Part shown: positions 19,085-44,087 of the stretch, piece by piece | How the letters are laid out: the number at the start of each line of letters is the position of its first letter | Position numbering within the stretch: the first letter of the stretch is position 1 | NCBI RefSeq assembly: GCF_045037415.1 | Contig: NZ_CP173438.1 | Source: Escherichia coli | GTDB lineage: Bacteria; Pseudomonadota; Gammaproteobacteria; Enterobacterales; Enterobacteriaceae | Length of the DNA stretch: 64,000 nucleotides | Strand: one strand, 5' to 3' | The notes under the pieces: generated by a model | Database searches by the model: none | What the model was told of the DNA's origin: nothing | Seen by the model: only the letters and a program-made list of their open reading frames with translations | Translations under genes and position numbers: made by a program

Positions 19085-20344
19085 TTATGAGCGTTTCATC
19101 ATTTCGAAGAAATCGTCATTGGTCTTGGTCATTGCCAGTTTATTAATGAGGAATTCCATTGCATCGATTTCGCCCATCGGGTGAATGATTTTGCGCAGGA
19201 TCCACATTTTCTGCAGTTCTTCCTGAGTCGTGAGCAGCTCTTCTTTACGGGTACCGGAACGGTTGTAGTCGATAGCCGGGAAGACGCGTTTTTCAGCGAT
19301 CTTACGAGAGAGGTGCAGTTCCATGTTGCCTGTACCTTTAAACTCTTCGTAGATAACTTCGTCCATTTTAGAACCGGTATCGATAAGCGCCGTCGCGATA
19401 ATGGTCAGGCTGCCGCCCTCTTCCACGTTACGCGCCGCACCGAAGAAGCGTTTCGGACGATGCAGGGCGTTGGCGTCCACACCACCGGTCAACACTTTAC
19501 CTGACGCCGGAACAACGGTGTTGTAAGCGCGCGCCAGACGAGTGATGGAGTCGAGCAGAATGATAACGTCTTTCTTGTGCTCAACCAGGCGTTTCGCCTT
19601 CTCGATCACCATTTCCGCAACCTGAACGTGGCGAGATGCGGGTTCGTCAAAGGTAGAAGCAACAACTTCACCTTTTACCAGTCGCTGCATCTCGGTTACT
19701 TCTTCCGGACGTTCGTCGATCAGCAGAACCATCAGCACACAATCCGGGTGGTTGTAAGCAATGCTCTGAGCAATGTTCTGCAGCAGCATGGTTTTACCGG
19801 CTTTCGGCGGTGCCACAATCAGACCACGCTGACCACGACCGATAGGTGATGCCAGATCCAGTACGCGAGCGGTTAAATCTTCCGTAGAACCGTTACCACG
19901 TTCCATACGCAGACGAGAGTTTGCGTGCAGCGGGGTTAAGTTCTCAAAGAGGATTTTGTTGCGGGCGTTTTCAGGTTTGTCGAAGTTAACTTCGTTAACT
20001 TTCAGCAGCGCAAAATAGCGTTCACCTTCTTTCGGCGGGCGAATCTTACCAGAGATGGTATCACCAGTGCGGAGGTTGAAACGGCGGATTTGGCTAGGGG
20101 AAACGTAGATGTCATCAGGACCGGCGAGGTAGGAGCTGTCTGCGGAACGGAGGAAACCAAATCCATCCTGCAATATCTCCAGTACGCCATCACCAAAGAT
20201 ATCTTCGCCACTCTTTGCGTGCTGCTTCAGGATGGCAAAAATAATGTCCTGCTTACGCATACGAGCCAGGTTTTCCAGCCCCATATTTTCGCCGAGAGTG
20301 ATCAGCTCAGAAACCGGCGTATTCTTTAATTCGGTAAGATTCAT
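19085..20344 (-). CDS. rho: Transcription termination factor Rho (419 aa)
   Basis: ORF track 19085..20416; start trimmed to MNLTELKNT; Walker A GKT present. Confidence 0.95.
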
Positions 20345-20428
20345 AGTGGTGTGAGTTCTTAAACTTGGGGTAAATCTCGAACTTAATGTTGTGAATGGTA
20401 TGGCAGGATCATCCATGCCTGTTTACGG

Positions 20429-20530
20429 TCATCGACTCATGTCTTTTCGCTGCCTGGTCACAGGAGAGTACGCAGAACTGAAACGACAAGACGGATTGAG
20501 TGACGAGCCAGAAATCTGTTCACTTCGCAT
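20429..20530 (-). CDS. rhoL: rho operon leader peptide (33 aa)
   Basis: Reverse-strand ORF translates to MRSEQISGSSLNPSCRFSSAYSPVTRQRKDMSR; sits between trxA and rho. Confidence 0.75.
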   Translation of the reverse strand: MRSEQISGSSLNPSCRFSSAYSPVTRQRKDMSR

Positions 20531-20670
20531 TTAAGATAAAACGGGAAGCGTTGGAAATTACAAGATTCAAACTTAATAAGGTATGTTTAATACGAAGTCA
20601 ACACTAAGTTAGCATGACTCACGCCGGGCGTCCAGTTTTTAGCGACGGGGCACCCGAACATGAAATTCCC

Positions 20671-21000
20671 TTACGCCAGGTTAGCGTCGAGGAACTCTTT
20701 CAACTGACCTTTAGACAGTGCGCCCACTTTGGTTGCCGCCACTTCACCGTTTTTGAACAGCAGCAGAGTCGGGATACCACGGATGCCATATTTCGGCGCA
20801 GTGCCAGGGTTTTGATCGATGTTCAGTTTTGCAACGGTCAGTTTGCCCTGATATTCGTCAGCGATTTCATCCAGAATCGGGGCGATCATTTTGCACGGAC
20901 CGCACCACTCTGCCCAGAAATCGACGAGGATCGCCCCGTCCGCTTTGAGTACATCCGTGTCAAAACTGTCGTCAGTCAGGTGAATAATTTTATCGCTCAT
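20671..21000 (-). CDS. trxA: Thioredoxin 1 (109 aa, WCGPC active site)
   Basis: ORF track 20671..21105; start trimmed to [13 protein letters not shown]. Confidence 0.95.
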
Positions 21001-21130
21001 ATATAACTCCACAGGAATAAGCCTGGCGTGTTGGTTTCGTTGTTGGTGTAACATTAACCAACTAAAGGTTGACTTTATTTCACCGGATACGCTTTCGTAA
21101 AGCAATAGTAAGCTGATATTCTACCACACT

Positions 21131-22396
21131 ATGAGCAAAACACATTTAACAGAACAGAAGTTTTCCGACTTCGCCCTGCATCCGAAGGTTGTAGAAGCCC
21201 TTGAAAAAAAAGGGTTTCATAACTGTACGCCCATTCAGGCACTGGCCCTTCCGCTGACGCTGGCGGGTCGTGACGTAGCCGGGCAGGCGCAAACCGGTAC
21301 CGGGAAAACGATGGCGTTTCTTACGTCAACGTTTCATTATCTTCTCTCTCATCCCGCGATTGCTGATCGCAAGGTGAATCAGCCGCGTGCCTTAATTATG
21401 GCACCGACGCGTGAACTTGCCGTGCAGATCCACGCCGACGCGGAACCGCTGGCGGAAGCTACCGGCCTGAAGCTGGGTCTGGCTTACGGTGGTGATGGCT
21501 ACGACAAACAGCTGAAAGTGCTGGAAAGCGGCGTTGACATTCTGATTGGCACCACGGGTCGTTTAATTGACTACGCCAAGCAGAACCACATTAACCTCGG
21601 TGCCATTCAGGTGGTGGTGCTGGACGAAGCCGATCGCATGTACGATCTGGGCTTTATTAAAGATATCCGCTGGCTGTTCCGCCGTATGCCGCCTGCAAAC
21701 CAGCGCCTCAACATGCTGTTCTCCGCCACGCTTTCGTACCGGGTACGTGAACTGGCGTTCGAGCAGATGAACAATGCCGAATATATTGAAGTGGAACCGG
21801 AACAGAAAACGGGCCACCGTATTAAAGAAGAGCTTTTCTACCCTTCTAACGAAGAAAAAATGCGTTTGCTGCAAACGCTGATCGAAGAAGAGTGGCCAGA
21901 CAGAGCGATTATTTTCGCCAACACCAAACACCGTTGTGAAGAGATCTGGGGCCACCTGGCGGCAGATGGTCATCGTGTCGGTTTATTGACAGGCGATGTC
22001 GCGCAGAAAAAACGTCTGCGTATTCTTGATGAATTTACCCGTGGCGATCTGGATATTCTGGTTGCCACCGACGTTGCCGCGCGTGGTTTGCATATTCCTG
22101 CTGTGACACACGTCTTTAACTACGATTTACCCGATGACTGTGAAGATTACGTTCACCGTATTGGTCGTACAGGTCGCGCTGGCGCAAGCGGTCATTCCAT
22201 CAGCCTGGCGTGTGAAGAGTATGCATTGAATTTGCCTGCTATTGAGACCTATATTGGTCACTCAATTCCGGTAAGTAAATACAATCCGGACGCATTGATG
22301 ACCGATCTGCCAAAACCGCTGCGCCTCACGCGCCCGCGCACAGGCAATGGTCCGCGTCGTACTGGCGCTCCGCGTAATCGTCGTCGTTCAGGTTAA
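21131..22396 (+). CDS. rhlB: ATP-dependent RNA helicase RhlB (DEAD-box)
   Basis: ORF track 421 aa; divergent from trxA. Confidence 0.95.
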
Positions 22397-39067: not shown

Positions 39068-39187
39068 ATGCCTGGCAGTTCCCTACTCTCGCATGGGGAG
39101 ACCCCACACTACCATCGGCGCTACGGCGTTTCACTTCTGAGTTCGGCATGGGGTCAGGTGGGACCACCGCGCTAAGGCCGCCAGGCA
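39068..39187 (-). rRNA. rrfC: 5S ribosomal RNA (120 nt)
   Basis: Reverse complement TGCCTGGCGGCCTTAGCGCGGTGGTCCCACCTGACCCCATGCCGAACTCAG...CTGCCAGGCAT. Confidence 0.95.
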
Positions 39188-39287
39188 AATTCTGTTTTAT
39201 CAACACGTCCCGTTATGACCTGTTGATTCAATCTGTTATCAAGCTTACTTATCGATGTCTCTTCCGCCAAAACATCTTCGGCGTTGT

Positions 39288-42191
<2,904 letters not shown>

Positions 42192-42384
42192 TCACAACCC
42201 GAAGATGTTTCTTGCGATTCATCATCGTGTCGCGAAAATTTGAGAGACTCACGAACAACTCTCGTTGTTCAGTGTTTCAATTTTCAGCTTGATCCAGATT
42301 TTTAAAGAGCAAATATCTCAAACATCACCCGAAGATGAGTTTTGAGATATTAAGGCAGGTGACTTTCACTCACAAACCAGCAAG

Positions 42385-42460
42385 TGGCGTCCCCTAGGGG
42401 ATTCGAACCCCTGTTACCGCCGTGAAAGGGCGGTGTCCTGGGCCTCTAGACGAAGGGGAC
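42385..42460 (-). tRNA. gltU: tRNA-Glu in the 16S-23S spacer
   Basis: Reverse complement GTCCCCTTCGTCTAGAGGCCCAGGACACCGCCCTTTCACGGCGG...CGCCA. Confidence 0.9.
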
Positions 42461-42545
42461 GTATCAGTCTGCTTCGCAAGACGCCTTGCTTTTCACTTTC
42501 TATCAGACAATCTGTGTGAGCACTGCAAAGTACGCTTCTTTAAGG

Positions 42546-44087
<1,542 letters not shown>

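Follow-up and report, generated by a model that had tools for sequence, protein, structure and literature searches.

The window analysed here, a stretch of 64,000 nucleotides, is part of an Escherichia coli chromosome and carries the genes wecA, rho, rhoL, trxA, rhlB and gppA in this order, the minus strand encoding rho, rhoL and trxA. The coding sequence of rho, the regulated gene, extends over 19085-20344 (419 amino acids, MNLTELKNT...), its start being placed by RefSeq at 20344. Upstream of it, and also on the minus strand, lies a small open reading frame at 20429-20530, which both the listing of open reading frames and RefSeq present as an ATG start, 33 codons and a TGA stop, with the product MRSEQISGSSLNPSCRFSSAYSPVTRQRKDMSR. 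Its stop codon is separated from the ATG of rho by a spacer of 84 nt (20345-20428, minus strand), which holds the rho initiation region and is a candidate rut region.

An earlier note on this DNA had taken the 33-codon frame to be rhoL, upstream of rho, and this is borne out. When the frame is aligned with the annotated gene the two coincide exactly: it is, base for base, the RefSeq CDS rhoL (WP_001295255.1; b3782; MG1655 3966231..3966332), and it coincides with the CDS as annotated in both K-12 C3026 and MG1655, between trxA and rho on the strand of rho. Its product scores 95.2 bits against the NCBIfam equivalog NF007433, for which the cut-off is 85, matching profile positions 1-33 of 33 (E 1.5e-27), and every testable criterion for membership of this family, location as well as score, places it there. 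Of 5426 complete E. coli genomes, all but one match a 401-nt query taken around the frame, with an identity of at least 99 % in 5379 of these 5425, and the 12 rows sampled from the 5425 genomes all carry at this place the annotation “rhoL: rho operon leader peptide RhoL”. In one of the 5426 genomes the trxA-rho leader stretch has no match, and at least one complete genome carries it in two copies, one of them on a plasmid.

What lies at 20429-20530 is the already annotated E. coli gene rhoL, within the self-regulating leader of rho, and the gene is already known, its annotation being decades old. In sequence, position and strand it is identical to RhoL, the ‘rho operon leader peptide’ (b3782; NF007433; UniRef LPRH_ECOLI). 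That name, however, implies a function for the peptide, and for such a function there is no support either here or in the literature searched. A Pfam search with the peptide returned no domain or family.

That Rho regulates its own synthesis has been known since the 1980s. Repression is exerted through Rho-dependent termination in the leader and early coding region of rho; both the dependence on Rho and the termination sites given here are taken from the literature. The occupancy of RNA polymerase inside rho, relative to the rhoL region, has been reported to increase 12-fold in a rho R66S mutant, and tetracycline has been found to cause no significant change in polymerase occupancy or termination in rho. 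Term-seq combined with bicyclomycin places a Rho-dependent 3' end at MG1655 3966467, which is +50 of rho and position 20294 of the window; this end scores 7.1 for Rho and 1.2 as an intrinsic terminator. The Rho termination region peaks at MG1655 3966504 (rho +87, window 20257; score 7.8, p 1e-215). The published termination zone within rho is accordingly given as 20257-20294 on the minus strand. A further published Term-seq 3' end falls in codon 31 of rhoL, at position 20439 on the minus strand (MG1655 3966322), in two of three growth-condition datasets.

The transcript may start at a candidate sigma-70 promoter at 20573-20601 (minus strand), recognized by reading the DNA and by its conservation, with a -35 element TTGACT at 20601-20596 and a -10 element TATTAA at 20578-20573. 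At about 20605-20613 there is an alternative, an extended -10 reading TGcTAACTT; a scan for consensus promoters found nothing. The two readings give leaders of about 222 and 255 nt, so that the leader would be about 220-255 nt long. The stretch that directly follows trxA (20616-20660, minus strand), CGGGTGCCCCGTCGCTAAAAACTGGACGCCCGG, forms an imperfect inverted repeat lacking a U-run, and at its foot published Term-seq 3' ends have been mapped (MG1655 3966142 and 3966145, window 20619 and 20616). The motif CTGGACGCCCGG after trxA is conserved among Enterobacteriaceae. In two Salmonella-like loci (L098 and L100, at their positions 2131-2250) the interval from trxA to the rho promoter region is longer by about 90 bases, which contain an inverted repeat (…ACGTCGAATGACA…TGTCATTCGACGA…); E. 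coli has none of these bases.

Leaders for comparison were drawn from labelled species-representative genomes, from look-ups of exact proteins and from a scan of metagenomes, the search pattern of which was placed in the spacer and hence was blind to the rhoL region. Most of the leaders from outside Escherichia belong to unlabelled assemblies or metagenomes, to which we have assigned a taxonomy by inference. The TrxA look-ups yielded two Salmonella-like loci and one Citrobacter-like locus, all unlabelled, and those with Rho yielded E. coli-type loci only.

Within Escherichia, practically every E. coli retains the ATG and the frame of rhoL, as do E. albertii, E. fergusonii, E. ruysiae and Shigella; members of the RhoL protein cluster come from E. 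coli, E. ruysiae, E. fergusonii and Shigella. The earlier note had treated conservation in related genomes as decisive for the frame, and outside Escherichia the peptide reading is not upheld: an ATG frame in the same register is present in five of 35 enterobacterial leaders, one of them shortened to 23 codons. The ATG is found in E. coli and E. albertii; two unlabelled variants (L108 and L144) have it at the same place, again with 33 codons, and a third (L118) carries the 23-codon version. It is missing from the other 30 aligned leaders. Among these are two Citrobacter species, Superficieibacter, and the strains deposited as Enterobacter sp. BIGb0383, Enterobacter sp. Ag1 and Klebsiella sp. 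BIGb0407 (names under Enterobacter or Klebsiella sp. being those of the depositors), as well as the Salmonella-like assembly L098; its twin L100 and the Citrobacter-like locus L101 lack it too. For these three loci the taxonomy is our own assignment.

Nowhere is the leader more variable than around the start codon, where indels also occur. Inside the frame, two relatives have indels of 5 nt and 1 nt, and the position of the stop varies from one relative to another. A search with the peptide of 1.84 billion representative proteins found only seven at E <= 0.001. The DNA of three matches that were not of the Escherichia type was checked; in these the frame starts with GTG or CTG and sits on a single contig, and one is apparently an E. 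coli assembly riddled with indels.

Nor do the substitutions within the frame have the pattern expected of a coding sequence. Across 13 leaders, the numbers of variable columns at the first, second and third codon positions are 13, 17 and 13, compared with 4, 3 and 59 in the first 345 nt of rho from the same genomes. When codons 8-33 are examined in 26 sequences the counts become 10, 13 and 16. There is therefore no third-position bias in the 13 leaders and at most a faint third-position trend in the larger set, in a test that has few variable sites to draw on. The frequency of such frames is likewise close to that in randomized leaders: among 35 related leaders, 14 have an ATG frame of 20 codons or more, where dinucleotide shuffles give 15.1 +/- 2.9, and 11 have one of 30 codons or more, where the shuffles give 8.3 +/- 2.6. 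Judged as an open reading frame, rhoL is not beyond chance. Its amino acid sequence is under no detectable selection, and the frame may be weakly translated in E. coli.

The start of rhoL has no Shine-Dalgarno-like word in the 20 nt that precede its ATG (CGCTTCCCGTTTTATCTTAA), and the AUG itself (20530-20528) is paired within the 3' arm of a predicted hairpin, H1. Two other frames in the leader were considered. A GTG frame of 21 codons in the +1 register (VNRFLARHSIRLVVSVLRTLL; 20458-20523, minus strand) overlaps rhoL and is open in several relatives; it was rejected as the “real” upstream frame, its start being no better conserved. An N-terminally extended form of Rho, beginning at an in-frame ATG at 20416, 24 codons upstream, was also rejected, since a 2-nt indel before the rho ATG breaks this frame in many relatives.

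It is as RNA that the leader is conserved. Within Enterobacteriaceae there is hardly any nucleotide variation from codon 11 of rhoL onwards, whichever codon position is considered. Consensus folding of 13 leaders with RNAalifold predicts two hairpins, H1 (20550-20521) and a long hairpin (20510-20426). In E. coli, H1 occupies 20521-20550 on the minus strand, has a predicted stability of -10 kcal/mol and bears the rhoL AUG in its 3' arm. The same hairpin is predicted in all 13 leaders, built from differing stems, for example CGCUUC/GAAGUG, UGCUUC/GAAGCA, CGUCUC/GAGACG and AUGCCUCC/GGAUGCAU. The second is an imperfect hairpin of 88 nt (20425-20512, minus strand; -26 kcal/mol), spanning codons 7-33 of rhoL, in which the 5' arm is rich in pyrimidines and YC steps and the 3' arm in purines. 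A small hairpin, GGCA...UGCC, is predicted at the start of the spacer (20402-20419, minus strand); as it is almost invariant, it constitutes weak evidence.

In the alignment of 13 leaders, 95 % of the cells are paired, and two-sided changes are found in nine pairs, compared with 4.4 +/- 1.5 in shuffles (one of 500 reaches nine) and with 0-2 in slid controls. For the divergent set of 35, RNAalifold on a MAFFT alignment retained only the base of the long hairpin, the interior being misaligned, and single-sequence folds and a covariance-model alignment were used instead. Folded singly, each of the 35 distinct homologues forms one hairpin, closed by GGC...GCC. The second tier of the stem differs between them (for example UCACUCA/UGAGU-GA, CUUGUC/GACAAG, UUCC/GGAA, CACCCAU/AUGUGGUG and GCUUUU/GAAAGU). 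A covariance model made from 15 sequences locates the long hairpin where it should be in 42 loci, among them four divergent ones with E values of 0.012-0.44, and in the resulting alignment 93 % of the cells are paired. Double changes occur in 15 of the 29 pairs of the long hairpin, against 6.1 +/- 1.5 in shuffles (none of 500 reaches 15) and 4-7 in slid controls, in an alignment which, being fitted to the model, leans towards structure and in which most of the added sequences are unlabelled. The fold z-scores are modest, with a single-sequence mean of -1.26 for the 35 homologues and the same value, -1.26, for the whole leader.

No Rfam family matches 20345-20600 at E <= 1. The sole family nearby is TrxA_thermometer (RF02773), which corresponds to the trxA 5' UTR at 20971-21070 on the minus strand (78.8 bits, gathering score 58). 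A fluoride-riboswitch match inside rho was dismissed as chance (14.9 bits against a gathering score of 34, E 0.79). Elsewhere in the window, at 35347-35636, 42199-42307 and 192-398, all on the minus strand, the Rfam scan reports Rev39_5p_UTR (RF02744, 152.9 bits), StyR-44 in the rrn spacer and GlmZ, and it also detects a complete rrn operon (39070-44087) and seven tRNA genes.

The spacer between rhoL and rho resembles a Rho loading site. The earlier note had pointed to 20345-20428 as the place to look for C-rich, G-poor RNA, and the composition is indeed skewed in this sense, with 28.6 % C and 14.3 % G (C/G = 2.0). In its last 60 nt (20346-20405) there are 18 C and 6 G, a C/G ratio of 3.0, an excess matched by 0.97 % of 60-nt windows on the same strand. 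The skew is a general one: in 76 of 80 gammaproteobacterial species C exceeds G in the 100 nt upstream of rho, with mean fractions of 0.275 and 0.150, compared with 0.243 and 0.252 in the rho coding sequences. The consensus fold of the spacer is weak (-7 kcal/mol) and without covariation, and the stretch is predicted to be mostly unstructured. No other part of the leader is so well conserved, and the spacer can be recognized in Yersinia, Photorhabdus and Acerihabitans. Its position is that expected of a rut site, 50-100 nt upstream of the mapped termination zone. Thus, being C-rich and G-poor, weakly folded and suitably placed, the spacer is rut-like. We infer that it is the best candidate for the rut site and that the long hairpin offers a second one in its pyrimidine-rich 5' arm, for as long as this arm is unpaired during transcription; the hairpin that closes over this arm counts against it as a free rut site.

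The 20 nt before the ATG of rho (20345-20364, minus strand) are G-poor and contain no Shine-Dalgarno-like word. An ending resembling ...CCACCAYTATG recurs upstream of rho in many Gammaproteobacteria (loci L003-L082). Within rho itself there is a further C-rich, G-poor tract at about 20046-20150 (minus strand; C 0.37-0.42 and G 0.15-0.18 in 60-nt windows). Lying some 195-300 nt into the coding sequence, downstream of the +50 and +87 sites, it could be a further, intragenic rut.

In Salmonella, the small RNA SraL pairs with the rho leader and protects it from attenuation, at a site said to overlap a putative rut site. The best predicted pairing site for SraL/RyjA in E. coli, involving nt 77-104 of the small RNA, is at 20471-20495 on the minus strand, in the 5' arm of the long hairpin (-20.6 kcal/mol); 12 of 200 shuffled leaders pair equally well, so that the prediction is suggestive only. 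A full-length RNAduplex of SraL with the leader was discarded, as the end-to-end duplex it returned is meaningless and no better than those of shuffles. With the known Rho-autoregulatory leader, which SraL modulates in Salmonella, the leader analysed here has in common its length, a C-rich, G-poor stretch, published Rho-dependent 3' ends downstream and a predicted SraL site in the conserved core. It differs in that the hairpins described here are without an Rfam family.

These features can be combined into a model. A transcript from the rho promoter would form a short hairpin first and then the 88-nt hairpin with its pyrimidine-rich 5' arm, after which about 80 nt of unstructured, C-rich and G-poor RNA, reaching to the rho start codon, would be transcribed. 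Exposed C-rich RNA, either in the spacer or in the 5' arm before the long hairpin closes, would serve as the loading site for Rho, which would release RNA polymerase 50-90 nt into the rho coding sequence. More active Rho would consequently mean less full-length rho mRNA, a negative feedback. SraL, or any ribosome on the leader, may act by covering or refolding the C-rich RNA. Loading of Rho on the leader and termination 50-90 nt into rho are drawn from published work together with the composition and geometry found here; which stretch is the rut site and what role the hairpins play are the parts of this scheme that we infer.

The observed variation of the nucleotides is that of RNA helices, and the frame that overlies them has no coding signature; it is therefore the RNA, rather than the peptide, that is conserved. 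The identity, composition and conservation of the locus, the missing coding signature and the covariation were established directly in this analysis. On the comparative evidence, they suggest that the conserved working part of the leader is its RNA, and rhoL is probably a lineage-restricted open reading frame over a conserved, structured leader RNA. We are reasonably confident of the general explanation, in which rhoL lies in the 5' leader that limits Rho, the RNA is the selected unit and the frame is confined to a lineage. A more specific version is somewhat favoured, though by no means firmly: that the selected unit is a structured leader RNA of Enterobacteriaceae, consisting of the 5' hairpin, the covarying 88-nt hairpin and the extremely conserved C-rich spacer and belonging to no Rfam family, that rhoL has been mis-described as a peptide gene, and that the hairpins time the access of Rho and SraL to the pyrimidine-rich RNA. 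The earlier note's account of rhoL as a leader peptide involved in attenuation is partly supported: the gene is rhoL and, according to the literature, the leader in which it is situated is the one by which Rho attenuates its own synthesis, but conservation provides no support for a role of the peptide.

The published phenotypes of rhoL have to be considered in this light. An IS2 insertion in rhoL lowers Rho to 40 %, and a multicopy rhoL fragment mimics the inhibition of Rho. Strains in which rhoL carries a transposon or is deleted group with rpoS mutants, and the activity of RpoS-dependent promoters in them is lowered for a time. The single line of evidence found for the peptide itself comes from a preprint listing small open reading frames, in which ribosome-profiling read counts of rhoL rise at least 3-fold in low Mg and which then sets rhoL aside. 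A 2023 survey counts b3782/rhoL among the core E. coli genes without a dedicated article, and the literature searched contained no experiment with a rhoL start-codon mutant. The IS2, multicopy and RpoS results are as easily explained by effects in cis or at the level of RNA; those with IS2 and the multicopy fragment, and the lack of a significant tetracycline effect, are consistent with the explanation favoured here.

Among the alternatives, the most probable is that in Escherichia rhoL works as a regulatory upstream frame, the translating ribosome unfolding the long hairpin and shielding the pyrimidine-rich RNA from Rho, so that the rate of translation would set rho transcription and the act of translation, not the peptide, would matter. 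We regard this as possible but rather unlikely. The retention of ATG and open frame across E. coli and its sister species is consistent with it, as are the ATG at the same position in a second lineage, the Mg-responsive profiling signal in the preprint, the Rho-dependent termination just downstream and the stop codon 84 nt short of rho, beyond which the C-rich spacer is free of ribosomes. Upstream frames that control Rho-dependent terminators in this way are known (tnaC, mgtL, speFL, mdtU and toiL), and rhoL shares with them the arrangement of a short frame upstream of a Rho termination zone, followed by an untranslated spacer. In those systems, however, there is conservation of the peptides or of their stalling motifs (MdtU, for instance, in 17 genera or more) and start-codon mutants have phenotypes; RhoL has no peptide conservation, no known inducer and no significant response to tetracycline, and its start and frame are not kept among the relatives that presumably share the regulation. 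Most related genera lack the start while keeping the RNA and presumably the autoregulation. Moreover, the start lacks a Shine-Dalgarno sequence and its AUG is paired in the -10 kcal/mol hairpin, the frequency of upstream frames is no higher than in shuffled leaders, and polymerase occupancy in rho shows no significant response to tetracycline, a drug that does relieve the terminator under toiL control. The literature also weighs against this alternative, in that no start-codon experiment was found and the 2023 survey records a core gene without a dedicated paper.

That RhoL is a small protein with a target in trans, such as Rho or the RpoS stress response, is very improbable. The clustering of rhoL mutants with rpoS mutants and the temporarily lowered activity of RpoS-dependent promoters would fit such a role, but the same mutations also damage the leader of rho in cis, and the rpoS leader is a known target of Rho; in addition, the peptide is not conserved as such and has no Pfam domain, and its richness in serine and arginine merely mirrors the UC-rich RNA. 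Still less credible, and already contradicted, is a classical ribosome-stalling attenuator of the trpL/hisL type, with alternative hairpins and an intrinsic terminator. A short leader frame overlying hairpins is indeed what rhoL has in common with trpL, hisL and ilvL. Unlike these, its leader possesses neither a run of regulatory codons, none being present in MRSEQISGSSLNPSCRFSSAYSPVTRQRKDMSR, nor a terminator/antiterminator alternative, nor an intrinsic terminator: 20250-21150 contains no site at which a terminator-like hairpin is joined to a U-run, and the 3' end at +50 of rho scores as Rho-dependent rather than intrinsic. Since there is no intrinsic terminator and no regulatory codon run, rhoL is not a classical attenuator.

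In E. coli, rho is an essential gene and the level of its product governs termination genome-wide, so that the way in which the cell sets this level matters. The gene rhoL is carried as a leader peptide in every E. coli annotation and is treated as such in screens; caution is called for, as the comparative data favour the RNA. The leader hairpins merit a curated RNA family of their own. As it is the RNA and not the peptide that is conserved, the phenotypes of rhoL insertions and deletions are to be read as effects in cis on the expression of rho.
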